64,000 nt of DNA, taken from an uncultured Clostridia bacterium (lineage in GTDB: Bacteria; Acidobacteriota; Aminicenantia; UBA2199). The number at the start of each line of letters is the position of its first letter. The stretch's first letter is position 1. The notes beneath the pieces are model-generated. The model made no database searches. It worked only from the letters and a program-made list of their open reading frames with translations, and was not told where the DNA came from. Positions 11,201 to 62,697 of this stretch are shown here, piece by piece. The position numbers and the translations under genes are program-made. The stretch lies in the NCBI GenBank assembly GCA_964633415.1, contig CAZWFY010000006.1, positions 6,099 through 70,098 of the forward strand, read 5' to 3'.

Positions 11201-11454
11201 ACACCGCTGATTACAATAACTTTTGAATCGGGATTAGTCTCTTTTGAGAATTTGGATAACTCGAAGCCGTGAAATTTAGGCAGCATTGCAGCACAAATAA
11301 GAAGATCGAATTTTTTCTTCTTTATTAATTTTTTAGCAACATCACCTTCACTAGCAATGGAAATTTCAAAAACAGATGAAGATAAAATATCTTTAATATT
11401 CTCAATCGTAGGAGAATCATATTCAACCAATAATACATTTTTTTTCATATTCAT
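8278..11454 (-). CDS. Multidomain signalling protein: pseudo-receiver (REC-like) domain, Hanks-type Ser/Thr protein kinase, TM helix, periplasmic K/E-rich coiled coil and TonB C-terminal domain.
   Basis: The REC-like N-terminus has KFDLLICAAMLP where the phospho-acceptor Asp is replaced by Ala. The kinase carries IARGGMAEIY...LAIKK, HRDISPPNIL, DFG and SPE motifs. The TM helix is RPILVLLFIIIAVAAGIYFL. The KKKKELEKKRRLALDKKKREAEAERIRLQEE coiled coil follows. The C-terminus PVLPRSIRAGSRSNILVSFLINEMGSIEKVKLIRKSE...ILKWKYSPAIKDGVKVKVW is TonB_C-like. Confidence 0.85.
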   Translation of the reverse strand: MNMKKNVLLVEYDSPTIENIKDILSSSVFEISIASEGDVAKKLIKKKKFDLLICAAMLPKFHGFELSKFSKETNPDSKVIVISGVYKGTEYRNKAISEYQADEFIEKPFNDTTFFNSVLNLLEITKDDVEGKTDPGTTQIPVFDTKKIKTPSGDFIKNQNKLSSEDIFGDLIDNVENIPEHKIELDKEDLTSDKGMSNSVKKEADKKAQITQILSREAFEKTSGKNSIRKINDEKINIDLKDIIKTDTGKKDKKAEKKIEEDIMKKFEETLSGLGIKDHNVIKKESVEKTVEPEVIKKDKKPQKNYKPEKENKDQKKNEIEGYEILGLIARGGMAEIYKAKKRGVQGFEKILAIKKILSGYGDDDKYIEMFVDEAKIASELSHPNIVQIYDFGQKDNYYFIAMEYVEGKDLRLILRKLSEKKTKLEEYISIYISLKILDALSYAHSAKDKYGNNLEIVHRDISPPNILLSYTGEVKITDFGVSKASNKLHQTLSGALKGKLLYMSPEQAKADKNIDKRSDIYSVGAILFELLTGQKLFKGSSEIEVLKKVQDGKITLPSEFIPDIDPDLERIILKSLEINKSKRYSNAAEMSKDLEAYLYKNFNHIPTPIHINVCLYDLFKDEILKDGIRVNLSQIPFEITRITTKEEIEHPVKDLKKSREINLVSSDNPPEPPNIINLPTEDDGDEEVLPESIDVKSEQNEPEKYPSDTPDEKDVTESTIDLSYDNKKVNEYNSSKNSISQIPESLNIEKFKKKRVVRPILVLLFIIIAVAAGIYFLSNSFNNDNSDSVDLNPPEVKKFVVDKKDDKLTDSNGLPNSSNPDINSSGQTLDSTLNTDKNMGIIPPQTTDNLTGESDNKSVIKDKNQNEMTPEEKLKEEKKKQDAIKKKKELEKKRRLALDKKKREAEAERIRLQEEARKKKEEDDRLQKIEDEKKRLQEEADKRKRDEEARKKLIAEQNRAKPGQIVSLGEVDKKPVAISTPAPVLPRSIRAGSRSNILVSFLINEMGSIEKVKLIRKSEKNSVNSIIKRTILKWKYSPAIKDGVKVKVWRTIPLNIK

Positions 11455-16719: not shown

Positions 16720-18963
16720 TCATTGTTTTTTGCGGCTGTCTAGAATGGAGGAAAAAACTTCAATAAGTTTTATAGTATGATTCTTTATCCTTAACAGATC
16801 TCTCGTGAAACCGTAAAAAAGTATGCTAAGACGTGTTTTGGAAGATTCATCCTTTATTCTCTCAACCTGATTTTTATCAAATAAATCAATTAATTTATCA
16901 ATCTTATATTTGTTTGATTTTATTTTATTTAAAACTTTTTTATCTTTATTCATCAATGCATTATATGAATCATCGAGTAATTTAAAGAGAGCTTCTCTAA
17001 TTTCATTTAATTCATTAAGTTGAACTTCCATCAAACCCATATGATTATTTTCCACATGCAGATATCCTCTTATTATAAGATCGTTCTGACATTCGGCAAT
17101 TCCCTGAAGTGAATTTATTGCAAGGGCAAAATCTTTTGAATATCCTTCCTTCTCTTTTTGAAGCAACCTTAATGTTTTAAAGATATTTGCAGCTATTATA
17201 TTTGCAGTATAGTTGTTTTTTTTCGCCTCTTTTTTTGCTTTTCTAAGTATGAAACGATCTTTTTTTGCAACACCGTCAAATCCTTTCTTTAAAACTTCAG
17301 AAACCTTTTTTAAGAATAGACCCGCATGTTTTAGAGTTGTATCCGTTGCATATGAAATATCTTTGATTTTTTTTAGATTGAATATTTCCATCTCTTTAGA
17401 TTCCGCTTCTCTTCTTTTGTGTATGGAATGATTACGGTATATCATACCGAGACTTATGAATAGTAATATGATAAAACCGAATACTCTGAATTTGAAAAGT
17501 ATAAAGGCGTAAAATCCCGAAACAAGAAAAGCAACGAATGCGGTCATAAACCATCCTCCGATAACGGCAAAAACTCCGGCGACTCTGTAAACGGCACTGT
17601 CAAGTCCCCATGCCCTGTCGGAAAAGGAGGTACCCATTGCGACCATGAATGTAACATATGTGGTGGAAAGAGGAAGTTTGTAAGATGTAGCGATTGATAT
17701 GAGAATGCTTGCAACCATAAGATTAACGGAAGCTCTTATTAGATCAAATGCCGGCTTTTCATCGTCATTTACGGTCAATGTCGAACCGACCTGAAGAAAT
17801 CTTTTGTTCATTATATCATTGATCTTTGAAGGAATTAATTTCCTGAAAACTTCGGAAAAATTTGAGAATATTCTGACTACCGATCTTGAAAGAGGAGATG
17901 ACCCGAACCTCTCAAATCCTTCATCCTGTCTGCCGAGGTTGATTTCGGTTTTTGTAACATTCCTTGACTTTTTTGAAAACCATAAAGTTAAAGCCATTAT
18001 AATTCCGGCGATTATCAGTAAAAGAGTGTGGGACGGAGTTTTACCTTGAAGTTGGGTCATTAGAACGGAATCGGGAGATGAACTTTTTATAGCAACATTA
18101 TAAGAACTTAATCCGGCAAGAGGAACTCCTATGAAATTTACAAGATCATTTGCCGCAAAAGCCATTGCAAGTGCAAAAGTACCTATTAAAACAATAATTT
18201 TCAAAATATCAATATTTGAAACGAATAAAATTATTTGGAGAAGAACGGAATAGGAGATAAAAGAGATAAGGCTGACTTTAAATGTGTGTGTTTTTATCCA
18301 GAAAAGAGTTTCAGGTGTGATGAATGTGGCACCTTTCGCACCTTTTATCAGTATAAAATATGTAATGGAAGTTAATGCAATTCCGCCCCATAATGCTCCA
18401 TACCTTTTTATTCTCTTCTTATAATCGAAGGTAAATATTAACCTCGTAATATACTGAAATACAGCACCTATGAAAAAAGCAACAATTACGGAGAGAAGAA
18501 TACCGAGTATAATTGTAAGTGCTTTGCTTGAATTTATATATTTAACAAGATTGTTGTAAGATTCTCCGAGACGAATGATCTTTAACATAGAGATTGATAC
18601 TGCAGCTCCGAGTAGTTCAAAAACTATTGAGACCGTCGTTGATGTAGGAAGACCGAATGTGTTGAATGTGTCAAGAAGAAGTATGTCTGTGAGCATAACC
18701 GCAAGAAAGATAATTATCAATTCCGGCATTGTAAAGAATTTAGGATGAAATATTCCTTTTCTTGCAACTTCCATCATTCCGCTTGAAAAAATCACACCGG
18801 AAAGAAGACCCATACTTGCAATTATCAGTATCTTTTTTCTTGATGCAACAAGAGATCCGAACGAGGAATTTAAAAAATTAACCGCATCATTACTTACTCC
18901 GACAATAATATCGGCAAGGGCTAAAGCACCGAGTATTAAAAGTGCAATAAAATAAAGTTCCAT
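16720..18963 (-). CDS. PiT-family inorganic phosphate transporter fused to a C-terminal PhoU-like cytoplasmic domain.
   Basis: N-terminal GVSNDAVNF...GANDLVNFIGVPLAG (PHO4 signature repeats) within about 10 TM helices. The soluble C-terminal roughly 230 aa is helical and PhoU-like. Confidence 0.8.
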   Translation of the reverse strand: MELYFIALLILGALALADIIVGVSNDAVNFLNSSFGSLVASRKKILIIASMGLLSGVIFSSGMMEVARKGIFHPKFFTMPELIIIFLAVMLTDILLLDTFNTFGLPTSTTVSIVFELLGAAVSISMLKIIRLGESYNNLVKYINSSKALTIILGILLSVIVAFFIGAVFQYITRLIFTFDYKKRIKRYGALWGGIALTSITYFILIKGAKGATFITPETLFWIKTHTFKVSLISFISYSVLLQIILFVSNIDILKIIVLIGTFALAMAFAANDLVNFIGVPLAGLSSYNVAIKSSSPDSVLMTQLQGKTPSHTLLLIIAGIIMALTLWFSKKSRNVTKTEINLGRQDEGFERFGSSPLSRSVVRIFSNFSEVFRKLIPSKINDIMNKRFLQVGSTLTVNDDEKPAFDLIRASVNLMVASILISIATSYKLPLSTTYVTFMVAMGTSFSDRAWGLDSAVYRVAGVFAVIGGWFMTAFVAFLVSGFYAFILFKFRVFGFIILLFISLGMIYRNHSIHKRREAESKEMEIFNLKKIKDISYATDTTLKHAGLFLKKVSEVLKKGFDGVAKKDRFILRKAKKEAKKNNYTANIIAANIFKTLRLLQKEKEGYSKDFALAINSLQGIAECQNDLIIRGYLHVENNHMGLMEVQLNELNEIREALFKLLDDSYNALMNKDKKVLNKIKSNKYKIDKLIDLFDKNQVERIKDESSKTRLSILFYGFTRDLLRIKNHTIKLIEVFSSILDSRKKQ

Positions 18964-19195: not shown

Positions 19196-19224
19196 TTGAC
19201 AAAGGGTGAATTTTTTCATATAAA
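19196..19224 (+). promoter_or_regulatory. Candidate promoter TTGACA-17-TATAAA for the EF-G-paralogue operon.
   Basis: Consensus -35 at 19196-19201 and -10 at 19219-19224. The RBS GGAGG lies 6 nt before the ATG at 19246. Confidence 0.4.
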
Positions 19225-19245
19225 TAATTTTACTTCGGAGGAAAA

Positions 19246-21327
19246 ATGAAGAGTACAAAAAGTGAAAATTTGAGAAATGTTTCAGTAGTAGGGCATGGAC
19301 AGTCAGGCAAAACAAGTCTTGTTTCCGCATTTTTATTCAATACGAAAATGGTTAACAGACTCGGAAAAGTCGATCAAGGTAATACGGTTACAGATTATGA
19401 GGAAGAAGAGTTAGAGAAAAAGATATCGATCCAAGCTTCTCTTGCATATGCTGTAAACGGAAAGTACAAGATCAATATAATTGACACTCCCGGATATGCA
19501 AATTTTATTTGGGAAGCAAGAATTGCCTTGAGAGCTACGGAAACCGCTCTGATCGTTATAAACGGGGTTGAGGGAGTTGAAGTTCAGACAGAGAAGGTTT
19601 TTGATGCTTCTTCGGAGTTGAATCGTTCTGTTGTATTTGTAGTAAATAAAATGTCTAAGGAACTTTCCGATTTTAATAAAACATTAGGATCTCTATCCGA
19701 GTCTTTTGGGAAAAATGTAATCTCGGTCCAATATCCGATCGGATCAGGGGAAAATTTCAAAGGTGTGGTTGATCTTATTGAGATGAAAGCATTCCTTTAT
19801 GCTAAAGATGAATCCGGAACTCCGGAAATCACTGATATACCTTCCGATATTAAAGAGGAAGTTGATAAAAAAAGAGAAGAACTTATAGAAAAGATTGCAG
19901 AGAACGATGAAGAGTTAATGGAAAAATATTTTGAATCTGGTGATCTTAGTCATGAAGATATTTTAAAAGGATTAAAAACAGCTGTTTTAAACAGGGAAAT
20001 TTTTCCGGTTTTGATAACTGATGCTTATTTAAATATCGGAGCTGACAGGGTTATTGATTTTATTGAAAAATATAATCCGTCTCCCTTGGATTCAGGCGAG
20101 GTAAAAGCTATTGAAGGAGTTGTAAAACCTGATCCATCCGAACCGTTTTCAGGGCTTGTTTTTAAAACAATATCCGATCCTTTTACAGGAAAAATATCGA
20201 TTATAAGAGTTTTTTCAGGAATGTTTAAACCTGATTCATCTTACTATAATTCCAATAAAGAGACTGATGAGAGAGTAGGTTCAATGTTTTATCTTCAGGG
20301 GAAAAACCAGGAACCTGCCGAAGAAGTTTTTCCGGGAGATATTGTTGCGGTTGCAAAGTTAAAAGAGACTCAGACCGGAGATACTCTTACTATTAAAGGT
20401 CAGAAAATAAAATTCGGAGAGTTCAAATATCCTGTTCCGTCAATCTCTTTTGCAATAGAGCCTAAATCAAGAGCGGATGAAGGAAAAATCTCAAATGCTT
20501 TCCACCGTATTTTTGAGGAAGATCCCACTGTGAAAACTCACAGGGACACTCAGACAAAGGAGTTGGTCATTTCAGGTAACGGTCAACTGCATGTAGAACT
20601 TATTGTTAACAAACTTCACAAGAAATATGGTGTTGAAGTTGAAATGAAGCCTCCGAAAATTCCGTATCTTGAAACAATCAAAGGTAAAGCCGATATAAAT
20701 CATAAATATAAAAAACAGAGTGGAGGAAGAGGTCAATACGGTCATGTTGTAATAAAGATCGAGCCTCTCCCGAGAGGAAAAGATTTTGAGTTTGTTGATT
20801 CTATTTTCGGAGGAGCAATACCAAAAAATTATATTCCGGCTGTTGAAAAAGGTATAAGAGAATCAAAAGATAAAGGTGTTCTTGCCGGTTATCCCGTAGT
20901 GGATTTTAAGATAGATCTTTACGACGGCAGTTATCATGATGTTGATTCATCGGATATGGCATTTAAAATTGCAGCTTCTATGGCTTTTAAGAAAGGTATA
21001 AAAGCAGCTAAACCGACTATTCTTGAACCTATCATGGATGTTGAGGTTGTTACTCCGGAAGAATTTATGGGAGATATCAATGGAAATCTGAGCGGTCGAA
21101 GAGGGCGTATTCAGGGAATGGAAGCTAAGGGGAAAAATCATGTTATTAAAGCAATGGTTCCTATGGTTGAAATGCTTGATTTCGAACCCAATCTCACTTC
21201 GATTACCGGAGGTAGAGGAAGCTATTTTATGGAATTATCACACTATGAAGAGGTTCCCGCTCAATTGCAGAAAAAGATTATTGCAGAAGCTGTAAAAGAG
21301 GGCAGGGTAAAGGAAGAAGAGGAGTAA
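19246..21327 (+). CDS. Elongation factor G paralogue with degenerate GTPase motifs.
   Basis: Full five-domain EF-G architecture (693 aa). G1 is GHGQSGKTS. Switch II is DTPGY, where canonical EF-G has DTPGH. G4 is NKMS where NKxD is expected. Confidence 0.85.
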   Translation: MKSTKSENLRNVSVVGHGQSGKTSLVSAFLFNTKMVNRLGKVDQGNTVTDYEEEELEKKISIQASLAYAVNGKYKINIIDTPGYANFIWEARIALRATETALIVINGVEGVEVQTEKVFDASSELNRSVVFVVNKMSKELSDFNKTLGSLSESFGKNVISVQYPIGSGENFKGVVDLIEMKAFLYAKDESGTPEITDIPSDIKEEVDKKREELIEKIAENDEELMEKYFESGDLSHEDILKGLKTAVLNREIFPVLITDAYLNIGADRVIDFIEKYNPSPLDSGEVKAIEGVVKPDPSEPFSGLVFKTISDPFTGKISIIRVFSGMFKPDSSYYNSNKETDERVGSMFYLQGKNQEPAEEVFPGDIVAVAKLKETQTGDTLTIKGQKIKFGEFKYPVPSISFAIEPKSRADEGKISNAFHRIFEEDPTVKTHRDTQTKELVISGNGQLHVELIVNKLHKKYGVEVEMKPPKIPYLETIKGKADINHKYKKQSGGRGQYGHVVIKIEPLPRGKDFEFVDSIFGGAIPKNYIPAVEKGIRESKDKGVLAGYPVVDFKIDLYDGSYHDVDSSDMAFKIAASMAFKKGIKAAKPTILEPIMDVEVVTPEEFMGDINGNLSGRRGRIQGMEAKGKNHVIKAMVPMVEMLDFEPNLTSITGGRGSYFMELSHYEEVPAQLQKKIIAEAVKEGRVKEEEE

Positions 21328-21343
21328 TCAACCCTTTATATTT

Positions 21344-22303
21344 ATGAGTTCATATATAACGGATAGTTATGGTGTCACTACTATCGACACAAAATATCTA
21401 AACCGAAAAGAGTATGCCGCAAGCTATATAATTCAGTCGGAAGGCGAGGCTGCAATAATTGAAACAAATACGAATTTTGCAATTCCGAATATTTTAAGAG
21501 CGGTTGAGGGAATAGGTCTTGATCTTAGAGGTGTAAAATATGTGATACTTACACATGTTCATCTTGATCATGCAGGCGGAGCAGGAAAACTTATGAAGTT
21601 ATTGCCCAATGCTAAATTGATAGTTCATCCGAGAGGTTCAAGGCATATGATTTCACCGGAAAGACTAATTGAAAGTGTTAAGAGTGTATATGGTGAAAAA
21701 AAATATAGAGAAATGTATGGAGATATAGTCCCGGTCCAAGAAGATAAAATTATTAATTCTTATGAGAATATGGTTTTAAATCTTGGAAGAAAAGATCTTG
21801 AGATATTGGAATCTCCGGGACATGCAAAACATCATATAATCGTTTTTGATAAAACCGAAGGAACGGTTTTCACCGGTGACAGCTTTGGAATAGGATATCC
21901 GAGATTCGGTTTTGAAAAGGGGTTTCTTATCTTCCCGTCAACTTCTCCCGTCCAGTTCGACCCTGAATCCGCAGTGAATACCTATAAGAAAATTGTAAGA
22001 TTGAATCCGGTAAATATATATTTGACTCATTTCGGCTCCGTCGAAGATATTCAAAGAATAGAAAATGAATTGTTAGAAGCAATTGATTTGTTTTTATCGG
22101 AAGGAAATAAACTTTTAAAAAAGGGACTGAAACATTCCGAATTAAGCAGTTCTATTCTTGAAAAAATCTGGGTATATTTTGATAAAAAGATTTTCAACTT
22201 TTCCGGCAAGCATCTTACAAAAGAAGACAGGGATTATCTATTTCTTGATGCAGATTTAAATTCTAAAGGTATTGCATTTTTTCTTGAGAAGCAGGGAAAT
22301 TGA
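21344..22303 (+). CDS. MBL-fold metallo-hydrolase.
   Basis: LTHVHLDHAGGAG (HxHxDH motif). It lies 16 nt downstream of the EF-G paralogue, and its stop overlaps the next ATG. Confidence 0.8.
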   Translation: MSSYITDSYGVTTIDTKYLNRKEYAASYIIQSEGEAAIIETNTNFAIPNILRAVEGIGLDLRGVKYVILTHVHLDHAGGAGKLMKLLPNAKLIVHPRGSRHMISPERLIESVKSVYGEKKYREMYGDIVPVQEDKIINSYENMVLNLGRKDLEILESPGHAKHHIIVFDKTEGTVFTGDSFGIGYPRFGFEKGFLIFPSTSPVQFDPESAVNTYKKIVRLNPVNIYLTHFGSVEDIQRIENELLEAIDLFLSEGNKLLKKGLKHSELSSSILEKIWVYFDKKIFNFSGKHLTKEDRDYLFLDADLNSKGIAFFLEKQGN

Positions 22304-22968
22304 AAAAAAACGAACCGATAATAAAAATTAAGGATGTAGGGAAAAGTTTTATACAACCTGACGGAACAAAGTTACAGGTACTGTCAGGCATAAATTTTTC
22401 AATTGAGAGAGGAAAAATATTTTCAATTACAGGAGTTTCGGGTTCCGGGAAGAGTACGCTGTTACATCTCATGGGAAGTTTTGAAAAACCCGATTCCGGA
22501 AATATCTTTTTTTCAGGAGAAGACATAAATAAGTTTAATAAAAAGAGACTTACGGAATATAGAAATTCCGAAATAGGTTTTATCTATCAATTTCATTATC
22601 TAATGCCTGAACTTACTATTCTTGAAAATGTTTCATTCCCTATGTTAATTAAAGACTTTAACAGGAAAAAGGCTGAAGAGCGTGCAAAAATATTACTTGA
22701 GAAGGTCGGGTTGAGAGAAAGAGTTTTAAATATGCCTTCGGATCTTTCGGGAGGAGAAAGGCAGAGAGCGGCAATTGCAAGAAGTTTGATAAACAGACCT
22801 GAACTTCTTCTTGCAGACGAGCCTACCGGAAATCTCGATAGAAGAACCGGAAATAGAGTTTTTGAACTATTTCTTGAATTGATAAGAGAGTATAATCTTA
22901 CTGCTGTTATTGCCACACACAATGAGTCTCTTGCGGAAAGATCGGATTTTAATCTTCATCTGATCTAA
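22300..22968 (+). CDS. ABC transporter ATP-binding protein of the LolD/FtsE/MacB subfamily, with no cognate permease in the operon.
   Basis: Walker A GVSGSGKST, signature LSGGERQRAAIARSL, Walker B LLLADEPTGNLD, 222 aa. The next gene is convergent mltA, so no permease follows. Confidence 0.85.
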   Translation: MKKNEPIIKIKDVGKSFIQPDGTKLQVLSGINFSIERGKIFSITGVSGSGKSTLLHLMGSFEKPDSGNIFFSGEDINKFNKKRLTEYRNSEIGFIYQFHYLMPELTILENVSFPMLIKDFNRKKAEERAKILLEKVGLRERVLNMPSDLSGGERQRAAIARSLINRPELLLADEPTGNLDRRTGNRVFELFLELIREYNLTAVIATHNESLAERSDFNLHLI

Positions 22969-24172
22969 AACCGTTTAAATCTTTTTTTATTAGAAAATAT
23001 AGTTTCCCATACTCTTTCAAGTGACCTGCAATGAGTTCACTATCTTTGCCATGACCGCAAAAAATATCTGCTCTTCCCGGTGTTTTAATTGCACCGCCGG
23101 TATCCTGATTCAGCATAAAACCTTTGAATGCGGAATAACCGGAAATAGAGCCGTTCTTATTAAAAACAGGAAGTTTTGTCTCAATATAACAAAGTGCTCC
23201 TTTTGGAAAGATTTTACGGTCGGTTGCAATAGTTCTGAACGGGGTTACTATAACTCCGAGAGATCCTACAGGTCCTTCATCAACTTCTCTGAAAAAAACG
23301 TAGGATTGATTGTAGTTTAATATTTCATCGGTTTCACTCGGATGATCCGAGATATATTTTTTTATAAATTGCATTGAAAGATCATCATAGGAGCAGATAT
23401 TATTCTCAACTAAATATTTCCCTATCGATCTGTATGGATGACCGTTGCTATCGGAATAATTGACACGGATAGAACTACCGTCATTAAGAGTCACAATTCC
23501 CGAACCTTGAATTTGTAGAAAAAAAAGATCAACTCTGTTATCTATCCATATAAGTTCAAGACCTTTTCCCGAGAGTACATTCTCGTTGTCTATCTCTTTT
23601 CTCCCGTAATAAGGTATAATTCTTTTGTCTTCCGTTATTCTTCCTCTTAAAACAGAAGGAAGAGAGTTGAACTTTTTATAAAATTTAAATTTTGAAAGAT
23701 CTATTTTAACAAGGTCTTCGGGAGTTTTATAAAGAGGAAATCTGAATTGATCATCCTGTTCTCTGGAACCTTTTAATTCAGCTTCAAAATATCCGGTAAA
23801 TAGAACTTTTCCGGATTGACTTTCAAAAAAAAGATAATTTTCTTTGATATATGAAAAAAAATTTTGAGTGAGTCCGGATTTGTTTAATTCGGATTTAAAA
23901 TCTTTAAGGGAGTTTAAAACACTATAACCGGAAAATTTTTTCCCACTGTAAAAAAAATCGGAATTAATTTTTTTCTTAAAATATTCAATGGAATTTTCAA
24001 CAGCATCGGTAAGAGTGTTTAAATTGCCGGAATCATAAATCGGTGGTGAAAGAGTGATAGTTAAGGAGTTTTCTTTTGTCCATTTTTTTTCTTTTGATAA
24101 AATGAAAATCATTAAAATCGTAATTAAGATAAGAGTAAAAACGGATCCGAAAATCAGGAGTTTTTTTTTCAT
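22949..24172 (-). CDS. mltA: Membrane-bound lytic murein transglycosylase A (MltA-like, 3D domain).
   Basis: Signal/TM N-terminus, a central MltA domain (...LTGYFEAELKGS...) and a C-terminal 3D-like region. Confidence 0.7.
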   Translation of the reverse strand: MKKKLLIFGSVFTLILITILMIFILSKEKKWTKENSLTITLSPPIYDSGNLNTLTDAVENSIEYFKKKINSDFFYSGKKFSGYSVLNSLKDFKSELNKSGLTQNFFSYIKENYLFFESQSGKVLFTGYFEAELKGSREQDDQFRFPLYKTPEDLVKIDLSKFKFYKKFNSLPSVLRGRITEDKRIIPYYGRKEIDNENVLSGKGLELIWIDNRVDLFFLQIQGSGIVTLNDGSSIRVNYSDSNGHPYRSIGKYLVENNICSYDDLSMQFIKKYISDHPSETDEILNYNQSYVFFREVDEGPVGSLGVIVTPFRTIATDRKIFPKGALCYIETKLPVFNKNGSISGYSAFKGFMLNQDTGGAIKTPGRADIFCGHGKDSELIAGHLKEYGKLYFLIKKDLNGFRSDED

Positions 24173-24273: not shown

Positions 24274-25776
24274 ATGAAAAGATTTTTGATCGTTATATTT
24301 ATTGTGGTTTTTTCCATATCTTTTTTATCCGGAAACAGTTTTAATTTTGATTCTGTTAAGAAAAGAATAACAAAATTTAAACTTGAAAACGGCTTAACGT
24401 TTATATTGCTTGAGGATCATTCGGTTCCGATCGTATCATTTGTTACATATGCGAATGTCGGCAGCAGTGATGAAAGAATAGGTATTTACGGAATATCCCA
24501 TTTCCTTGAACATCTTGCATTTAAAGGTACTACTGAAGTGGGAACAAGGAATCCTGCAAAAGAGAGAGCTGTTCTTGATAAAATGGACCGGATATTTAAT
24601 GAGATTTTAATTGAAAGAAGCAGAATCAATCCTGATAATGAGAAAATAAAAAAACTTAAAAAGGATTTGGATGGAGTTAGAAATGAAGCTTCAAAATTTG
24701 TTGTATCAAATGAGTTTGATACCATTTTAAAAAGAAACGGAGGGGTTGGACTGAATGCCGGTACAAGCAGTGATTCAACGGTATATTTTTACAGTCTTCC
24801 GTCTAATAAAATCGAGCTCTGGGCATATCTTGAATCGGGAAGATTTTCATATCCTGTTTTCCGTGAATTTTACAAGGAGCGTGAGGTTATTAAAGAGGAG
24901 AGAAGATTAAGAACTGAAAACTCTCCTATCGGAAAACTTATTGAAGAGCTTCAAGCTATTGCATTTAAAGATCATCCTTATAAAGTCAGTGTTATAGGTC
25001 CTATGAGTAATATTAATCATATTTCAAGATCGGATGTAAAAGCTTATTTCAGAAAACATTATACTGCAAAAAATCTCGTGATTGGTGTTGCCGGTGATGT
25101 AACTCCCGGTAATTTAAAAAAACTTGTAAAGAGATATTTCACGAAAATACGCAGTGGAGAAAAAAATGAAAGAGTTTTCACCATAGAACCGAAACAACCG
25201 GGTGAAAAAAGGATGACATTGCATGAGGATTCTCAGCCATGGGTTTTAATGGCTTATCACTGTCCTTCCGAATTAAGTCCGGATTTTAGTAAATTTGAAG
25301 TTTTGAATTATATTCTTACTAACGGAAGAAGTTCAAGACTCAATAAAAAAATGGTTTCAAAGGATAAATCCGCTATGGCGGTAGGATCGTTTGCCGGTTT
25401 CCCCGGGTCAAAATATCCTTCATTATATCTTATCTTTGCTCTACCGAATATGAAACATTCAACTGCCGAAATGGAGAAAGTCATATCTTCCGAAATAGAA
25501 AAATTGAAAACCGAAAAGATTAGTGATGAAGAGTTGATCTCTGCAAAAAACAGGATCAAGGTTGATTCAATTAAACGTATGAAATCTAATCAGGGATTAC
25601 TTAACGGACTTTTAAGAGCTGAAGTTGTTCAGGGAGGATGGGAAAAACTGTTTGATTCTATTGTTGAAACCGACAAAGTGACTGCCGATGATATTATGAA
25701 TCTTGCAAAAACCTACTTTACCGACAACAACAAGGTGCTTATAAAGATCGAAAAAAAGAAGGAGGTTAAAAAATGA
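24274..25776 (+). CDS. M16-family zinc peptidase, active subunit (HxxEH).
   Basis: Signal peptide and inverted zincin motif HFLEHLAFKGT, 500 aa. Confidence 0.85.
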   Translation: MKRFLIVIFIVVFSISFLSGNSFNFDSVKKRITKFKLENGLTFILLEDHSVPIVSFVTYANVGSSDERIGIYGISHFLEHLAFKGTTEVGTRNPAKERAVLDKMDRIFNEILIERSRINPDNEKIKKLKKDLDGVRNEASKFVVSNEFDTILKRNGGVGLNAGTSSDSTVYFYSLPSNKIELWAYLESGRFSYPVFREFYKEREVIKEERRLRTENSPIGKLIEELQAIAFKDHPYKVSVIGPMSNINHISRSDVKAYFRKHYTAKNLVIGVAGDVTPGNLKKLVKRYFTKIRSGEKNERVFTIEPKQPGEKRMTLHEDSQPWVLMAYHCPSELSPDFSKFEVLNYILTNGRSSRLNKKMVSKDKSAMAVGSFAGFPGSKYPSLYLIFALPNMKHSTAEMEKVISSEIEKLKTEKISDEELISAKNRIKVDSIKRMKSNQGLLNGLLRAEVVQGGWEKLFDSIVETDKVTADDIMNLAKTYFTDNNKVLIKIEKKKEVKK

Positions 25777-27878
25777 AAAAGATAACAATATGGATCTCAC
25801 TGATATTTTTTGTTTTTGGAATGTCGGCTTTGAATGCAAAAAGGAGTAAAATTGATAAAATCAAATATCCTCCTTTAAATAAGATCGTAAAACCCGTAAT
25901 TGATAAGGATATAACAAACAACGGAATAAAATTACGTTTAATAAAAACAACAAGATTCCCGATTATTACACTAAGAGCCTATTTTAAGGGTGGAGATGTG
26001 TATGATCCTTCGGATAAAACGGGGTTAGCTTCAATGACAGCAAGTCTTATGAGGATAGGGGGTGCCGGTGAATATAGTTCTGAAAAATTAGATACTGTTC
26101 TTGACTCAAAAGGAATTTCAATATCGATATACTCTAATGATGATTATTATGTTGTTTCGCTTTCTTCTTTAAAAGAAAATTTTAAAGAATCTCTGAAAAT
26201 ATTATCACTTATACTTCAAAAACCTTTATTCAACAAAGATAAATTTGATGAGCTTAAAACGAGATTGGCAAGTTCAATCTCAAGAAGAAATGATGACCCG
26301 GCGTCTATTGCAGCAAGAGAATTCGAAAAGATTATTTACGGGTCCAAATCAGCTTTTGCTTCTCAGCTTGAGTATGAAAAAATCGATAACATAAAAATCA
26401 AAGATATTAAAGAGACTTTTGAAAGATTTTTTAAACCTTCCAATGCCGTGTTCGGTATTACAGGTCCTATATCGATTAAAGAATTTAAAAGTGATATAGA
26501 AGAATATTTCGGCAAATGGTCGGGAAATGCAGTAATTCCCGATTATCCTAAAGTCTTAAATATTGATAATAAATTTCAAATCGGATTTGCTCAAAAGGAC
26601 AATCTTAATCAGAGTTATATTAATTTAGGTCATATCGGATATATTGAGAATATTGATGAAAAAGCTGCGATCATGGTATTTAATTCTATATTTTCCCAGG
26701 GATTTAATTCAAGATTAATGCAGAGATTAAGAGTGAAAATGGGACTTACATATGGAATCGGCGGTGGAATTATGAACTCCTATCTTCATCCGGGAAAAGT
26801 TTTTTTCTCAACATTTACCAAATCGGAATCTACTATTGATGTTCTTAAAGCTATAAATGATGAGATTGAAAAAATTCGCAGGGAAAAGGTTTCAAAGACG
26901 GAGTTGGAAGATGCAAAGAATTATTTTCTGAATTCATATGTTTTTAAATTTAGTTCTCCCGAAAAGATCCTTTATGATTATATGAAAAAGGAATTTTACG
27001 GTCTTGATGTAAAAAAATATGACAGGTTGATGGAGAATATCAAAAAAGTTTCGGTAGATGATGTTCTTAAAGTTGCAAAGAAGTATCTGAAACCTAATAA
27101 AATCGTTGCAATGGTAGTTGGTAACAAAAAAAAGATCAAAGGTGATTTATCCCAACTTGGAAAAGTTAAAAATATTGATATATCGATAAAACAACCTGTT
27201 TTAAAAGAGAAGATACCTGCAGCTACCGAACAGACACTTGAAATGGGAAAGAAAATTGTTTTTAATGCTTTGAATAAATGCTACAGAGGATATAAAAATA
27301 TCCGTTCATTAAGGATTCTTTCGAATGTAGAATTGAAAATGATGGGTAGAAATTTCTCTGTAGAGACCGACTCTTATACACAGTATCCGGATAGATCTTA
27401 TACTCTAACAAAAGTTATGGGTATGAAGATAGAAAGGATTATTGACGGTAATAAAGGAGTTATGAAACAGATGGGGCAGAGTAAACCGATTTCGTCTAAA
27501 GAGATAAAAAAGGGGGATTTTGCCTCAATATATGATATTTACAAAAATTATAAAAAATATAAGTTTCAATTTTTAAAGACAGAAAAGATCGGCAATTCTG
27601 TTTATGATATTATCTATATATTTACTTCCGGAGATAACTGGGTGAAATTTTTTATTAATAGAAAAAGTCATCTGATTGAATTTAAAGAAAAAATAGATAA
27701 TATTGCCGGAGAAAAAGGTGTTGCAAGAATAGTAAATTCTCAATTTAAGAAGATCGGAAATATATATTTTGCTTTCAAAACGGATATTTTATTAAAAGGA
27801 AAGAAAAAAGTCGGAATTACGGTTAAAAAAATTGAGATAAACCCGAAAATAAATTCAGATATGTTTAAAATGGATTGA
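25773..27878 (+). CDS. M16-family peptidase-like protein lacking the HxxEH motif, with a roughly 250-aa C-terminal extension.
   Basis: Signal peptide and an M16 fold, with no HxxEH in the N-terminal region. The extension spans about residues 450-701. The start overlaps the upstream M16 stop. Confidence 0.7.
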   Translation: MKKITIWISLIFFVFGMSALNAKRSKIDKIKYPPLNKIVKPVIDKDITNNGIKLRLIKTTRFPIITLRAYFKGGDVYDPSDKTGLASMTASLMRIGGAGEYSSEKLDTVLDSKGISISIYSNDDYYVVSLSSLKENFKESLKILSLILQKPLFNKDKFDELKTRLASSISRRNDDPASIAAREFEKIIYGSKSAFASQLEYEKIDNIKIKDIKETFERFFKPSNAVFGITGPISIKEFKSDIEEYFGKWSGNAVIPDYPKVLNIDNKFQIGFAQKDNLNQSYINLGHIGYIENIDEKAAIMVFNSIFSQGFNSRLMQRLRVKMGLTYGIGGGIMNSYLHPGKVFFSTFTKSESTIDVLKAINDEIEKIRREKVSKTELEDAKNYFLNSYVFKFSSPEKILYDYMKKEFYGLDVKKYDRLMENIKKVSVDDVLKVAKKYLKPNKIVAMVVGNKKKIKGDLSQLGKVKNIDISIKQPVLKEKIPAATEQTLEMGKKIVFNALNKCYRGYKNIRSLRILSNVELKMMGRNFSVETDSYTQYPDRSYTLTKVMGMKIERIIDGNKGVMKQMGQSKPISSKEIKKGDFASIYDIYKNYKKYKFQFLKTEKIGNSVYDIIYIFTSGDNWVKFFINRKSHLIEFKEKIDNIAGEKGVARIVNSQFKKIGNIYFAFKTDILLKGKKKVGITVKKIEINPKINSDMFKMD

Positions 27879-27976: not shown

Positions 27977-28058
27977 GCGAAAGTGGCGGAATTGGCAGAC
28001 GCGTCAGACTTAGGATCTGGTGCCGAAAGGTGTGGGGGTTCGAGTCCCCCCTTTCGCA
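27977..28058 (+). tRNA. tRNA-Leu (TAG), type II with a long variable arm.
   Basis: GCGAAAGTGGCGGAATTGGCAGACGCGTCAGACTTAGGATCTGGTGCCGAAAGGTGTGGGGGTTCGAGTCCCCCCTTTCGCA. The anticodon loop ACTTAGG gives UAG. Confidence 0.85.
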
Positions 28059-28072
28059 TTGAGTATTAATAA

Positions 28073-28540
28073 TTGGTTTTGAAAAATGCAAATAGATTTG
28101 TTGTAATTCTTATTATAGCTTTTGGTGTTCATTTCTGTAATTATAAAAGCGAACCCGAAAAAGTTTGGGGGTTAAGGTCGAAAATCATAGAATTGGCGGA
28201 ATCGCTGAAAGGAATAAAATATCAATATGGCGGTTCTGAAATATATGGGTTCGATTGTTCAGGGTTTGTAAAATATGTTTACGGATCATTCGGGATTGAT
28301 ATACCGCGTACTGCTAAGAAGCAGGGAAAAATAAAACATAGAGTTAGATTTGACAAAGCTAAGCCCGGTGATATTCTGATTTTTAAAATATCACGTAAAA
28401 AATGGCATTCCGGAATCTATATTAACGAAAAATATTTTATCCATTCTCCGAACGGAAGAGGTTATATAAGAAGAGAAAAGTATAGTGGATATTGGATTAA
28501 AAAAATGAAATATGTAATTTCAATAATAGAAAGATATTAA
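28073..28540 (+). CDS. NlpC/P60 (C40) cell-wall peptidase.
   Basis: GFDCSGFVKYVY catalytic Cys motif with a downstream His (WHSGIYI). The true start may be internal. Confidence 0.75.
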   Translation: MVLKNANRFVVILIIAFGVHFCNYKSEPEKVWGLRSKIIELAESLKGIKYQYGGSEIYGFDCSGFVKYVYGSFGIDIPRTAKKQGKIKHRVRFDKAKPGDILIFKISRKKWHSGIYINEKYFIHSPNGRGYIRREKYSGYWIKKMKYVISIIERY

Positions 28541-29373
28541 TGTTTTTCCTTTTTATTAATAATATCAAAAAGTTTTTCCGAAATTAAAGTTACCCTCGGT
28601 CCGGGTCTCAGCCAGAATTGATCTTTAACAACAAAAATCTTTTTATTTAGAACTGCTGAAATATTGTTGAATTTATTCCATTGCTTAATAATGTCCCTTG
28701 AACTGCTCTTTTTTAAGAAATAGATAAATTCAATGATTATATCCGGATTCATATTGATAACCGATTCTATAGAAACCGTTGGATAGTTTAATTTTCCTTT
28801 ATAACAGTTTATTCCTCCGGAATATTTTAGAATTTCATTGAGATAGTCTCCCTTACCGATGATTATCATATTTCTAAGATGAAAAGGATCTCTTGAAATA
28901 ATTATAAGTACTTTCTTTTTTATACCCTTTGTTTTAAGAGAAATCTTATATAATTTATTTTTAATGGTCTTAACGGTTTGATTTCCTTTTTCCTTTTTGT
29001 TTAAAGCAACAGCTATTGTCTCAATTGATCTATATAAATCTTTTAAACTTTTATGCTCAAGAGAAATAAGTTTGACTTTCTTATTAAAAATTTTTATTTT
29101 TTCATAGTGTTCCGGATAATGAAATATTATATCCGGTTTTAATGAAATTATTTCTTCAATATTAAGATCGATAAATCCTCCGATTTTATTAATATGTCTC
29201 GCTTCTTTCGGATAATCGCAAAATTTTGTAACTCCTACAAGTCTGTTTCCCGAGCCCAGTTTGAAAATTATTTCCGTAATTCCTGGTGCAAGAGAAATCA
29301 GTCTCTGTGGAAATATCTGAAAACATAAGAATAACAGTCCTAATAAAAAGGGAGGAGTTATCGATCTTTTCAT
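28537..29373 (-). CDS. Periplasmic binding protein of the cobalamin/siderophore type (BtuF/FecB-like).
   Basis: Signal peptide then LISLAPGITEIIFKLGSGNRLVGVTKFCDYP, typical of class III SBPs. It lies 3 nt downstream of the TonB-dependent receptor. Confidence 0.7.
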   Translation of the reverse strand: MKRSITPPFLLGLLFLCFQIFPQRLISLAPGITEIIFKLGSGNRLVGVTKFCDYPKEARHINKIGGFIDLNIEEIISLKPDIIFHYPEHYEKIKIFNKKVKLISLEHKSLKDLYRSIETIAVALNKKEKGNQTVKTIKNKLYKISLKTKGIKKKVLIIISRDPFHLRNMIIIGKGDYLNEILKYSGGINCYKGKLNYPTVSIESVINMNPDIIIEFIYFLKKSSSRDIIKQWNKFNNISAVLNKKIFVVKDQFWLRPGPRVTLISEKLFDIINKKEKH

Positions 29374-29376
29374 CTT

Positions 29377-31215
29377 CTAATTATATAAAATTCCTATTTC
29401 AAATCTTCTTCCCGGCGTTAAATATCCGAATATTTCGGAATATTTTGAATTGAAAAGATTTGTAAGTTTTCCATACACATTAAATTTCTTTTTAACCGGG
29501 ATGGTGATGTTCAGATTGTAAACGTTATAGGAAGGCATATTTATGTCGGGCGGGTATATCATGAAATTATAATCTCCTCTTTTACCTACATAGATTGTAT
29601 TGAAACCTACGGTGAAGTGAGGGCTTGAATATCTGACTGAAGCTGTAAGAGAATCTTTCGGTCTTCTTTTAAGAGGTAGTCCTGTTGATTCATCAATGCT
29701 TTTCAAATGTGTATATGAGAGTTCAAAAACAGTATTTTTAATAATGGAAGAAGAGAAGGAAAATTCAATACCGTCGATTTTTGCCTCTTTAATATTCTGA
29801 TATTGTCCTCGCCATGTAACGGGATCAATTGTAACCCAATCAATCATATCTTTGTATGTAGATTTGAAAATCGTAAGACCTAAAATATGTTTTTTTAAAA
29901 AAATATCAGCTCCGATTTCACCTGAAACTCCCTTTTCCGGTAGTAAATTGAAATTCGGAGCTCCCCATGGATTTATCTGCTGAAGAAGAAGAGGTGCCTT
30001 GAAACTTTGGGAATATGATGTTCTGATCTTTATATTGCTATTGATTTTAAATGCAACTCCCAACTGTGGCGAAAAGTTAGCTTTTACACTCTTATATTTA
30101 TCAAATCTGATTGAAGATGTTAAAAATATAAATCCCAGGTCGGCATCTGCTTTAATAAAAGATGAAAAATAGTTTCTTGATTTGTTATCTATAACAGTCT
30201 TGGTACTGTTTGCGGAAAAAATTTTTGTAGATGAATAATCGAATCCTACACTAATATCAATATTTTTGCTTAAATATGAGTTGAAAACAGTATCAATCTC
30301 AATGTTTTTTGATCTGTTGGTATAATAGGGACTCCATTTATCATCGCTATCCTCAAATTTGTAGGAATTTCCGTTAAAAGATAAAGTTGTTCTTATTTTT
30401 GAATTTTCGCCGAGATTAAATATTAGAGGAACTGCAGCTATAAAATTATTACTTTTAAATTTTCTATTAGGTGAAGATTTGCCGGAATTGTTAAATGGGA
30501 TTCCCGAGTCGACACTGTTAAGAAAAAAGAGTAATCCGCCATTTAAGAAACCATCACTTTTAAAATCAATCTTTCCGTGAAATCCTATGTTTTTAAATAG
30601 ATCATTTATTGAATTATCTTTATAATTTTGGATAGAAGAAGAGACGGAGTATAAAATCCCGTTTTTTTGATTGCTTGTTGAAAAATTTGCCTGATATGAC
30701 CCGTGACTTCCGGTGTTTAACAGCACTTTTGTACCGTTGCTCCCTCCGAGAGAGATATTAACAACTCCTCCCATTGCATCCGAACCGTAGATACTGCTTA
30801 ACGGTCCTTTAACAACTTCAACTTTTTTGATAAGAAAAGCAGGTAGAAGAGAGAGATTTATTCCTCCTATGCTGGAATCGTCCCTTATTTTGATACCGTC
30901 AATCAGATAGAGAATCTGAGTGTTCCTCGATCCTCTGATGAAAGTTGATGATGACTGACCGAATTTACCATTGGAAAGTGTAAGAACTCCCGGAGACATA
31001 GAGAGTACTTCTTTTAAGTTAACCATTTTCAATGCTTGAATCTCATCATTTTCAACAACCGAAATACTTTGAATCGATTTACCGATGGGGATGTGACCTA
31101 TAACTTCAATGTATTCAACTTTTTCTTTTGAAATTTCTTCGGGATTTTTTTCATTTGAAAAAGTAGAAAACGATAATAGAAAAATAGATAAAACAACTGT
31201 AAATAATTTGATCAT
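29377..31215 (-). CDS. TonB-dependent outer-membrane receptor, probably for cobalamin (BtuB-like).
   Basis: Signal peptide, plug domain (IRGSRNTQILYLIDGIKIRD), a 22-strand barrel length and a C-terminal aromatic residue. A cobalamin riboswitch lies upstream. Confidence 0.85.
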   Translation of the reverse strand: MIKLFTVVLSIFLLSFSTFSNEKNPEEISKEKVEYIEVIGHIPIGKSIQSISVVENDEIQALKMVNLKEVLSMSPGVLTLSNGKFGQSSSTFIRGSRNTQILYLIDGIKIRDDSSIGGINLSLLPAFLIKKVEVVKGPLSSIYGSDAMGGVVNISLGGSNGTKVLLNTGSHGSYQANFSTSNQKNGILYSVSSSIQNYKDNSINDLFKNIGFHGKIDFKSDGFLNGGLLFFLNSVDSGIPFNNSGKSSPNRKFKSNNFIAAVPLIFNLGENSKIRTTLSFNGNSYKFEDSDDKWSPYYTNRSKNIEIDTVFNSYLSKNIDISVGFDYSSTKIFSANSTKTVIDNKSRNYFSSFIKADADLGFIFLTSSIRFDKYKSVKANFSPQLGVAFKINSNIKIRTSYSQSFKAPLLLQQINPWGAPNFNLLPEKGVSGEIGADIFLKKHILGLTIFKSTYKDMIDWVTIDPVTWRGQYQNIKEAKIDGIEFSFSSSIIKNTVFELSYTHLKSIDESTGLPLKRRPKDSLTASVRYSSPHFTVGFNTIYVGKRGDYNFMIYPPDINMPSYNVYNLNITIPVKKKFNVYGKLTNLFNSKYSEIFGYLTPGRRFEIGILYN

Positions 31216-31244: not shown

Positions 31245-31445
31245 GTAAAATTTTATCTTAAACACGCCCTCCGCACGTTAAGATATTATTAAGGATTAAT
31301 AGGTCTTCCGACTCCCGGGAATCTTAGATGCCTTCCCCTTCAAAAATATGAAGAGTGGCTTAATCTCAAAGACCATATCTTTAAAAAAGACCCGGTCACG
31401 GCAGCGGGGGCTGTGGGGTTTTAAACCCTCTTCCCTTGAATTAAA
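31245..31445 (-). ncRNA. Cobalamin (AdoCbl) riboswitch.
   Basis: The minus-strand RNA reads ...AAGGGAAGAGGGTTTAAAACCCCACAGCCCCCGCTGCCGTGACCGGG..., matching the conserved GGGAA...GGTnnAAnnCC...GCCGTGA core. A GCCACTC element follows. A B12-box-like GAGTCGGAAGACC follows, then a GGAGGG/CCCTCC helix next to the RBS. Confidence 0.7.
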
Positions 31446-31457
31446 CCTTAAAAATAA

Positions 31458-31486
31458 ATTTTAATTCAATTATATTTCCATGTCAA
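31458..31486 (-). promoter_or_regulatory. Promoter TTGACA-17-TAAAAT for the riboswitch/btuB transcript.
   Basis: On the minus strand, TTGACA lies at 31486-31481 and TAAAAT at 31463-31458. The transcription start falls just 5' of the riboswitch. Confidence 0.4.
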
Positions 31487-33961: not shown

Positions 33962-34978
33962 TTAATAGCTGTATTCGTTAAGTTCGACTTTACCTTTGAA
34001 TTTCCTATAAATAAATATTGTATAAATTAATACAATCGGAACACCTATTAGAGCAATTATAAGCATTGTAAAAAGTGTTCTGTGAGTAGATGAAGAGTTA
34101 TAGATCGTAAGTGAATATGAAAGGTCGGTCAAAGAGGGAACGAGTCGGGGGAATAGACTTATTGCCGCAATAGATATCATACCGCTTATAGAGACAGCCG
34201 AAGATAAAAAAGCCCAACCTAGTCTTTTTGATTTCACCATTATCGGAATGGACATGATTGCAATAAACAGAATGATGAAAGCTATCCAGAAAAGTGGATT
34301 TCCGAGTATCCCTTCAAACAGAAAACCTGCTTCAAAAAATGAATATATTGTTGCAAGAAAAAATATTGAAACAAAAGCTATCCAGAGTTTGGGAATAATG
34401 TTTAATATCTTTTTTTGATGGTCATTTTCCGTTTTCATTGCAAGATAGATTGATCCGTGAAGTGTGAACATAACCAAGCTGAGTATTCCTATAAGTATGG
34501 AGTAGGGGTTAAGAAGAGTGAAAAAGTTACCGGTAAAGATCCCTTTTGCGTTCAGGGGAATACCTCTAAGGATATTTCCGACGGCAACACCGAAAAGAAT
34601 TGCCGGGAAAAGACTTCCCAATCCGAAAGAGATGTCCCATATTTTTTTCCAGCGTGAAGATTCTATTTTTCCACGGAACTCCATTGAAACCGCTCTCATT
34701 ATAAGAAAAAGAAGAAGTAGCATTAAAGCCATATAAAAAGCACTGAATACAGTAGCATAAACTATCGGAAATGCGGCAAACAAAGCACCGCCGGCAGTTA
34801 AAAGCCACACTTCATTCCCATCCCAAACAGGAGCTATTGAGTTAATATTTATTCTCTTTTCAGTTTCATTTTTTGTGAAGAGATGAATTACACCGACTCC
34901 GAGATCAAATCCGTCAAGAATAGCGTATCCGGTTATTAAAACGCCGTAAAGTATAAACCAAGTTATGTTTAGGTCCAT
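33962..34978 (-). CDS. cydB: Cytochrome bd ubiquinol oxidase subunit II.
   Basis: 338 aa, about 8 TM helices, immediately downstream of cydA (start overlaps its stop). Confidence 0.85.
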
Positions 34979-50451: not shown

Positions 50452-50526
50452 TGGGAAGTCGTCTAATTGGCAGGACATATGACTCTGGATCATAGAGTTG
50501 GGGTTCGAGTCCCTGCTTCCCAGCCA
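50452..50526 (+). tRNA. tRNA-Gln (CTG).
   Basis: TGGGAAGTCGTCTAATTGGCAGGACATATGACTCTGGATCATAGAGTTGGGGTTCGAGTCCCTGCTTCCCAGCCA. The U1 start and ...CCAGCCA end are typical of bacterial tRNA-Gln. The anticodon loop is CTCTGGA. Confidence 0.8.
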
Positions 50527-50537
50527 TTTTTTTTTAT

Positions 50538-62696: not shown

Positions 62697-62697
62697 T

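Follow-up and report, generated by a model that had tools for sequence, protein, structure and literature searches.

An EF-G2 paralog with a putative relocated guanine-recognizing aspartate in a clade-specific operon of Aminicenantes

A three-gene locus headed by a probable member of the EF-G2 subfamily

We analyzed a 64,000-nucleotide stretch of contig CAZWFY010000006.1 (GenBank assembly GCA_964633415.1, positions 6,099 to 70,098 of the forward strand; hereinafter, the window) from an uncultured bacterium of the Aminicenantes lineage (OP8, Acidobacteriota), focusing on a gene for a paralog of elongation factor G (EF-G) and the two genes that follow it on the forward strand. The EF-G-like gene (19246-21327; all coordinates are those of the window) encodes a protein of 693 amino acids (aa) in which the five EF-G domains, G (with G') and II to V, represented by the Pfam families GTP_EFTU, EF-G_D2, EFG_III, EFG_IV and EFG_C are all detected with significant scores. 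It is followed, after a gap of 16 nt, by a gene for a 319-aa metallo-hydrolase of the metallo-beta-lactamase (MBL) fold (21344-22303; Pfam Lactamase_B), the stop codon of which overlaps by 4 nt the TTG start codon of a gene for a 222-aa LolD-like ABC ATPase that consists of a single nucleotide-binding domain (NBD) (22300-22968; Pfam, NCBIfam and PDB matches). The operon ends at the convergent lytic transglycosylase gene mltA (22949-24172, reverse strand; Pfam MltA and 3D domains), beyond which lie two genes for M16-family peptidases (24274-27878, forward strand; Pfam). The three genes were called identically by independent gene callers on public contigs identical to the window. The packing of the genes and the retention of all five EF-G domains, described in an earlier note made from the sequence of this stretch, are thus confirmed, and so are the two aberrant motifs that the note pointed out in the EF-G-like protein, DTPGY and NKMS; there is no frameshift, and the homologs are of equal length.

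Upstream of the EF-G-like gene, the forward strand, in a window with a G+C content of 30-37%, reads as a sigma-70-type promoter (TTGACA, 19196-19201, and TATAAA, 19219-19224, with a 17-nt spacer) and a Shine-Dalgarno sequence, GGAGG (19237-19241), located 4 nt 5' of the ATG. The automated promoter scan demands a T at position 6 of the -10 element and therefore does not list this promoter. When the window was compared with nine relatives, a cTTGACAAAG element accompanied by a TATAAA-like -10 element and GGAGGA was found upstream of the EF-G-like ortholog, at -50 to -64, in 8 of the 10 loci (the window, L001-L005, L007 and L031; L numbers denote genomic loci) and was not found at that position in the other two, L006 and L009; the GGAGGA sequence is kept in every relative compared. 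Because the element is conserved while the flanking sequences diverge, the promoter noticed earlier is, judging from this conservation, more than a chance match. An Rfam search of the 282 nt preceding the gene yielded neither a riboswitch nor a leader, and a terminator scan found no terminator on the forward strand within the operon. The EF-G-like gene would then be transcribed from its own conserved promoter, probably together with the MBL and ABC genes.

The EF-G-like gene appears to belong to the known EFG II (EF-G2) subfamily. Its best NCBIfam match is NF009381, a sub-model of PRK12740 (PRK12740.1-5), with 921 bits against a cut-off of 583 bits. Motif tables compiled for 80 genomic loci and for 150 representatives from a library of 1.84 billion proteins separate canonical EF-G, with AHIDAGKTT, RGITI, DTPGH, NK[ML]D and GSA, from a large, heterogeneous group that spans many phyla and has GHxxxGKT, xxxSx, DxPG followed by Y, F or other residues, N[KQR]xD and SA. 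The second group can be equated with EFG II because the states of its G1, G2 and G3 motifs match the description of that subfamily by Margus et al. (2011), and in a neighbor-joining tree (built without bootstrap or maximum likelihood) the window protein falls among the GH/xxxSx/DxPG[YF] proteins, with canonical EF-Gs as the outgroup. The window protein shares with canonical EF-G (EFG I, encoded by fusA) the order of the domains, approximately 40% sequence identity and the loops at the tip of domain IV, KKQSGGRGQYGHV and GSYHDVDSS (20710-20952), which we take to be those that in canonical EF-G reach the decoding center, whereas all five canonical motifs, AHIDAGKTT, RGITI, DTPGH, NKMD and GSA, are altered. 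The P-loop (G1) is GHGQSGKTS (residues 16-24; 19291-19317), with the EFG II-type GH instead of AH; the G2 motif in switch I is KKISIQ (19417-19434) where canonical EF-G has RGITIT, so that Ser replaces the Mg-binding Thr, in agreement with the relaxed xxxSx of EFG II; the G3 motif in switch II is DTPGY (residues 80-84; 19483-19497), with Tyr instead of the catalytic His; the G4 motif is NKMS (residues 134-137; 19645-19656), without the Asp of NKxD; and the G5 motif is TDAY (20017-20028), with Asp259 in place of the Ser of the canonical GSAF or SAL.

The first three of these states, along with the five-domain architecture, the rapid evolution of the family and a location outside the str operon, are features of EFG II. 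The neighbors of the EF-G2 gene are genes for a PiT-PhoU transporter and the MBL protein, rather than rpsL, rpsG and tuf, which bears out the earlier description of a paralog outside the str operon. The G4 and G5 motifs depart from the subfamily consensus: Margus et al. (2011) list both NKxD and gSAx among the conserved motifs of EFG II, and the EF-G2 proteins of Thermus and Mycobacterium smegmatis have TKLD, whereas the window protein lacks the G4 Asp and has xDA at G5. Among the characterized members of EFG II are Thermus thermophilus EF-G-2 (PDB 1WDT/2DY1) and M. smegmatis EF-G2 (PDB 9K0Z/9K10) and, as far as can be gathered from papers citing Han et al. (2023, PMC9841332), Bacteroides thetaiotaomicron EF-G2. 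The window gene differs from the solved Thermus and M. smegmatis proteins also in sharing a clade-specific operon with the genes for the MBL protein and the LolD-like ATPase. Its closest genomic loci come from metagenome-assembled genomes (MAGs) of Aminicenantes/Acidobacteriota, with EF-G2 identities of 59-84%. Six loci (L001, L006, L007, L009, L015 and L017) belong to Third Party Annotation (TPA) 'binchicken' MAGs that are labeled Clostridia or Eubacteriales and encode EF-G2 proteins 59-84% identical to that of the window; L001 also shares the flanking gene order with the window, and the taxonomic labels of this MAG set look unreliable.

The guanine-binding site and the predicted activity of EF-G2

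For the analysis of individual residues, we defined a clade of the 121 closest sequences, with at least 67% identity to the window EF-G2. The switch II motif in this clade is DTPGF in 91 of the 121 sequences and DTPGY in 26; with Phe in most of the members, the hydroxyl group of the Tyr is not a conserved feature of switch II. Tyr or Phe is likewise the commonest residue at the position of the catalytic His among 143 EFG II-like representatives, and Thermus EF-G2 (1WDT) combines DAPGY with the P-loop GHAGSGKTT and with TKLD at G4. As far as can be judged from these sequences, the replacement of His by Tyr or Phe is a hallmark of the entire EFG II subfamily and nothing special to the window gene. 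M. smegmatis EF-G2, with Tyr98 in place of the His, has no GTPase activity dependent on the ribosome, and the study of this protein also found that the H88Y substitution nearly abolishes the GTPase activity of EF-G1; the same study states, however, that Thermus EF-G2 has been reported to possess GTPase and translocation activity despite its DAPGY. According to papers that cite Han et al. (2023), Bacteroides EF-G2 translocates without GTP hydrolysis. Since Thermus EF-G2 is reported to be active, the loss of the His in itself is no proof of a non-hydrolyzing factor; of the earlier proposal to that effect, the absence of the His stands, but the conclusion drawn from it does not follow, Tyr or Phe being the norm in EFG II.

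The P-loop provides an additional indication. The canonical HID is replaced by HGQ, so that the His is kept and the Ile and Asp are changed; according to the M. smegmatis EF-G2 study, in canonical EF-G this Ile and Asp help to contact the sarcin-ricin loop and to form a hydrophobic gate. Because of this change taken together with that in switch II, the ribosome-activated GTPase activity of the window protein is predicted to be weak or absent.

The binding of a nucleotide, by contrast with its hydrolysis, is probably retained. At least 97% of the clade members are invariant at each of the positions G16, H17, G18, G21, K22, T23, D80, P82, G83, N134 and D259, whereas position 137, the fourth position of G4, drifts. 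The identity of the G domain is 0.71 in the clade and 0.75 in a sister Aminicenantes clade with 51-61% identity to the window protein. The invariance of the nucleotide-site residues and the nearly equal G-domain identities imply that the nucleotide-binding site is under purifying selection.

The two departures of the window protein from the EFG II consensus, at G4 and G5, are linked. None of the 121 clade sequences has an Asp at the fourth position of G4, where K (the commonest replacement), T, S, R, C, G, Q or N is found instead, and the G5 motif in the clade is xDA, compared to the ordinary (S/G)SA. The sister clade has NKLD at G4 and SSA at G5. The same pairing is seen across the wider subfamily: an Asp or Glu at G4 is missing in 10 of the 143 EFG II-like representatives, and a G5 Asp is present in 7 of these 10 but in only 2 of the 133 representatives with an acidic G4 residue (Fisher p = 2e-8). 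The 7 proteins that combine G4 loss with a G5 Asp occupy at least five separate places in the neighbor-joining tree, and their nearest neighbors mostly have the ordinary combination of G4 Asp and G5 Ser; these proteins carry diverse source labels (WOR-3, Armatimonadota and others), and no gaps occur in the local alignments. Some proteins, from Coatesbacteria and other sources (P0279, P0281, L024 and L027), have an Asp at both positions, with N[KR]MD at G4 and GDA at G5, and, on sequence grounds, possibly represent plausible intermediates of a relocation of the Asp from G4 to G5.

The Asp of NKxD is the main determinant of guanine specificity, and in Ras-like folds the G5 Ser is a neighbor of the G4 Asp. 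In an N-Ras simulation paper, Asp119 is the top contact of the base, and a hydrogen bond between Ser145 and Asp119 is not confirmed in that work. Given that the G5 Asp is invariant in the clade and that the pairing recurs in at least five lineages, we infer that the guanine-recognizing Asp has been relocated from G4 to G5, rather than base recognition having been lost. The earlier note concluded that the guanine-specificity Asp was lost; it is indeed absent from G4, but the invariant G5 Asp that accompanies its absence argues for relocation.

The alternative is that the loss of the G4 Asp signifies a changed or relaxed base specificity, with ATP, XTP or any nucleoside triphosphate (NTP) as the ligand, or a nucleotide-free pseudo-GTPase, and that the G5 Asp plays some other role, for example in a salt bridge with a G4 Lys. 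The status of the NKxD Asp as the main guanine determinant, to which the N-Ras result conforms, is what lends this explanation its appeal, along with the uniform absence of the residue from the clade, the drift at this position and the prevalence there of Lys, which is compatible with a Lys-Asp pair. The window protein, though, has Ser rather than Lys at G4, so that a salt bridge cannot be general; the near-invariance of the P-loop, the Ser/Thr of switch I, DxPG and the G4 Asn is contrary to a nucleotide-free pseudo-enzyme; and the recurrent, specific pairing with a G5 Asp fits a functional replacement better than a loss. We therefore consider altered specificity unlikely and favor relocation.

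With the Asp relocated, the following picture of the EF-G2 activity can be proposed. The protein would bind to the ribosomal A site like EF-G, given that its five domains are intact, as are the loops at the tip of domain IV; these intact loops are compatible with both A-site binding and translocation. It would still bind a guanine nucleotide, given the strong constraint on the P-loop, the Mg-binding Ser, the Asp of DxPG and the Asn-Lys of G4, with the base-recognizing carboxylate supplied by the invariant Asp of the G5 motif (xDA) instead of by NKxD. Hydrolysis of GTP on the ribosome would be slow or would not occur. By analogy with the characterized EF-G2 proteins, such a factor could be involved in slow, GTP-sparing translocation or in stress-linked regulation of the ribosome alongside a canonical EF-G; both the weak or absent GTPase activity and this physiological role are predictions.

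The MBL and LolD-like genes and the history of the operon

The second gene of the operon encodes an MBL-fold protein with a clear Lactamase_B match in Pfam (77.5 bits, 1.7e-21) and an intact set of metal ligands, namely HVHLDH (HxHxDH, residues 71-76), GHAKHH (159), TGDSFG (177) and LTHFG (227). No specific NCBIfam family scores above its cut-off for this protein, and the source annotation is just 'MBL fold metallo-hydrolase'. The nearest solved structure is that of the uncharacterized Sulfolobus tokodaii protein ST1585 (PDB 3ADR). The window protein resembles ST1585-type hydrolases (Pfam Lactamase_B/ODP) in the HxHxDH motif, the downstream metal ligands and the size, and differs from them in a C-terminal extension of approximately 90 residues, for which no match was found in Pfam or NCBIfam. 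Assignment of the protein as a beta-CASP RNase or as PhnP was considered and rejected on the basis of the domain content and scores.

For the third protein, the best NCBIfam model is LolD (TIGR02211), with 269 bits, below the equivalog cut-off of 308 bits, followed by FtsE, YbbA and MacB, which substantiates the earlier assignment to the LolD/FtsE/MacB clade; NF008639, a further test for LolD, yields 221 bits, also below its cut-off (360 bits). The best PDB matches are the LolD structures 9W2W and 7ARH (E of about 1e-56 to 1e-59). Like the LolD of the lipoprotein-releasing transporters LolCDE and LolDF, the protein is a single NBD of about 220 aa in which all the catalytic motifs are intact: Walker A (GVSGSGKST), the Q-loop, the signature LSGGERQR, Walker B (LLLADEPT) and the H-loop (ATHN). 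PhnK/L and ABC-F were rejected as alternative identities of the ATPase, again based on domain content and scores.

Unlike typical LolD, the window ATPase has no adjacent permease of the lolF, lolC or lolE type. Pfam found no FtsX/MacB-type permease among the 48 open reading frames (ORFs) of the window that were scanned (three smaller ORFs and, of the 48 with 150 aa or more, the 45 other than those at 1769-2269, 2702-3424 and 3756-4379), and the 10 kb adjoining the window on its left side yielded none either; this agrees with the earlier statement that no local permease is encoded, the next gene being the convergent mltA. Nor was a permease found beside the ABC ortholog in about 16 Aminicenantes loci, including L001-L006, L009, L031, L081, L082 and L085-L087. 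By way of a baseline, at least 31 of 51 generic LolD-like loci, obtained in a metagenome scan with the ABC protein and encoding ATPases of 38-48% identity, have an adjacent permease according to a crude transmembrane-topology test. A review gives lolF-lolD operons as the rule, and by both standards, the permease-unlinked state is atypical; in Aminicenantes, it is conserved. The conserved neighbors of the window-type ATPase are instead the MBL hydrolase and two M16 peptidases. The most plausible inferred function is that of the NBD of a MacB/LolF-type transporter, the membrane subunit of which would be encoded elsewhere. The lineage appears to make lipoproteins, given that related genomes encode lspA and lgt. 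The earlier suggestion that the ATPase has lost its transporter partner is not one on which a single window permits a conclusion. The ABC-M16-M16 arrangement, without an adjacent permease, is a conserved neighborhood across Aminicenantes, and both M16 genes that follow the ABC gene encode N-terminal signal or anchor segments.

The gene neighborhoods in related genomes fall into five arrangements. The order EF-G2-MBL-ABC, found in the window, is shared by six genome loci with differing flanks (L001-L005 and L031) and by two further public contigs with an identical EF-G2 (L083 and L084), so that conservation of the synteny in relatives, left by the earlier note for checking, is confirmed. In L008 and L089, the order is EF-G2-MBL-OTCase, and in the genome of L089, an ABC-M16-M16 cluster (L086) shares the contig with it at a distance of about 65 kb. 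The MBL gene is missing in L006 (EF-G2-ABC-M16-M16) and L009 (EF-G2-ABC). Conversely, EF-G2 is missing in L081, L082, L085 and L087, where MBL-ABC is often followed by M16-M16; the 4-nt overlap of the MBL and ABC genes is kept in L081 and L082. Finally, in eight sister-clade loci (L012-L018 and L039), EF-G2 is the last gene of a co-directional ileS-lspA-lgt-rluD-EF-G2 array. In L006, L085, L086 and L087, the M16 pair directly follows the ABC gene; in the window, mltA intervenes. Across these genomes, conservation of the EF-G2-MBL-ABC operon is confined to a single Aminicenantes clade. These arrangements are most simply explained if, in the ancestor of the clade, EF-G2 came to lie upstream of a preexisting MBL-LolD-M16-M16 cluster, which was later split in different ways. 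The EF-G2 gene lies beside lipoprotein-maturation genes in the sister clade and beside a LolD-like gene here, which may be a coincidence.

A dedicated module, in which EF-G2 acts on ribosomes together with the MBL protein, for example as a nuclease or a small-molecule hydrolase, and a transporter-independent ATPase, is what the tight packing behind one conserved promoter would lead one to expect, and the unit stays together while the flanks change, with each pairwise adjacency kept in some lineage and the ABC gene without a neighboring permease in the Aminicenantes loci, as opposed to the generic ones. Each of the three genes, however, occurs without the others in related Aminicenantes, and hence the module, which the earlier note put forward as one for ribosome-associated rescue or regulation, is poorly supported. 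The linkage is restricted to a single clade, and one insertion with varied break-ups thereafter can account for it; the MBL protein contains neither a beta-CASP nor an RNA-binding domain and looks like a generic hydrolase of the glyoxalase-II/ODP-like kind; and the ATPase is a single LolD-like NBD, not one of the ABC-F type. The module thus appears quite improbable, and most likely, the MBL hydrolase and the LolD-like ATPase function without the involvement of EF-G2. The clade is set apart both by the G4/G5 swap and by its new genomic context; as each of these is a single event, a causal link between the two cannot be inferred.

Considering all the evidence together, the best explanation of the locus, and one that we regard as likely, is that it encodes an Aminicenantes EF-G2 with a relocated Asp and an MBL hydrolase and an ATPase that function independently of it. 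Several points weigh against this explanation. The EFG II placement is based on common derived motifs, on the PRK12740 sub-model and on the neighbor-joining tree; the protein marginally passes the cut-off of the EF-G model TIGR00484 (690 vs 659 bits) and matches canonical Thermus EF-G better (581 bits) than the solved EF-G2 structures (about 457-466 bits), being nearer to canonical EF-G overall than the solved EF-G2 proteins are. The role assigned to the G5 Asp relies on covariation and on the general geometry of the G5 Ser and G4 Asp in Ras-like proteins, and the activity of this clade is read from sequence and from other EF-G2s. The persistence of the EF-G2-MBL, MBL-ABC and EF-G2-ABC adjacencies, each in some genomes, could reflect weak selection for linkage, and a LolD-like gene unlinked to a permease runs counter to the lolF-lolD rule.

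The scores, in particular, are what would be expected if the gene were a divergent fusA, the only or the main translocase of the organism, as are the canonical domain IV loops and the strong conserved promoter with its Shine-Dalgarno sequence; furthermore, no canonical fusA was seen in the approximately 74 kb of the contig that were viewed (the window and its left extension; the rest of the genome was not searched). These 74 kb, though, are a small fraction of a multi-megabase genome, and according to Margus et al. (2011), a single-copy EF-G always belongs to EFG I, whereas EFG II is always accompanied by another EF-G. Combined with the location of the gene outside the str-operon context and the absence of the catalytic His, the replacement of which by Tyr nearly abolishes the GTPase activity of a canonical EF-G, this makes a sole translocase improbable in the extreme, and an accompanying EF-G2 the preferred identity.

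The wider neighborhood and implications

The genes around the operon present several features of their own. Divergent from EF-G2, on the reverse strand (16720-18963), lies a gene for a 747-aa PiT (PHO4) phosphate transporter fused to a C-terminal PhoU domain, which is found also in L001. Farther to the left (8278-11454, reverse strand), a 1058-aa protein with an unusual architecture combines a response-regulator receiver domain at the N terminus with a Ser/Thr protein kinase domain and, at the C terminus, a TonB_C domain; its relatives are encoded near EF-G2 in L002-L004. A cobalamin riboswitch (31281-31460, reverse strand; Rfam RF00174, 64.9 bits) is located upstream of genes for a TonB-dependent receptor (29377-31215) and a periplasmic binding protein (28537-29373), both on the reverse strand, in what is likely a B12-uptake operon. 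The protein encoded at 56495-57478 (forward strand) has, at its N terminus, about four hydrophobic segments ahead of PIN and TRAM domains and may be a PIN nuclease anchored in the membrane; next to its gene is a 408-aa ORF (55195-56421) without a Pfam match. The DUF4340 and ABC_transp_aux (GldG-like) genes with which the window ends on the right (61737-63954, reverse strand) suggest an ABC-2-type system, with the ATPase and permease beyond the window, that belongs to a different ABC family from the LolD-like gene. The window also contains six tRNA genes (2251-2581, 27977-28058 and 50452-50609) and housekeeping genes including parA-parB (60006-61633), cydAB for a cytochrome bd oxidase (33962-36315) and the gene for an H+-pyrophosphatase (44639-46864). 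The left extension of the contig (L090) carries FtsK, genes of the Kdo pathway, which fit a diderm envelope, and others, and neither fusA nor lolF is present there.

EF-G2 paralogs are widespread, and their role is just emerging: slow translocation that dispenses with GTPase activity in Bacteroides, and regulation linked to stress in mycobacteria. The gene analyzed here is of a known kind; the previously undescribed part, as judged from the literature searched, would be the putative, recurrent relocation of the Asp from G4 to G5. A more far-reaching possibility, which we regard as very improbable, is that the EF-G2s with a relocated Asp form a recurrent subclass with altered nucleotide use, for example a relaxed or non-guanine specificity or a permanently nucleotide-locked binding, and that in Aminicenantes such a variant would have joined the MBL protein and a LolD-like ATPase independent of any transporter in a common unit functioning on ribosomes or in translation-envelope coupling. 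In the explanation that we prefer, with a guanine-binding EF-G2 and two independent neighbors, the operon context is a lineage-specific juxtaposition from which a ribosome-linked role of the MBL and LolD-like genes should not be inferred, and the permease-unlinked LolD-like gene near two M16 peptidases poses a small question for the evolution of the Lol pathway. The relocated Asp itself appears to be a natural, recurrent rewiring of the guanine pocket and, as such, would offer a ready test of how base recognition can be rebuilt in translational GTPases, and the G4/G5 swap may serve to test whether EF-G2 function needs guanine specificity at all.

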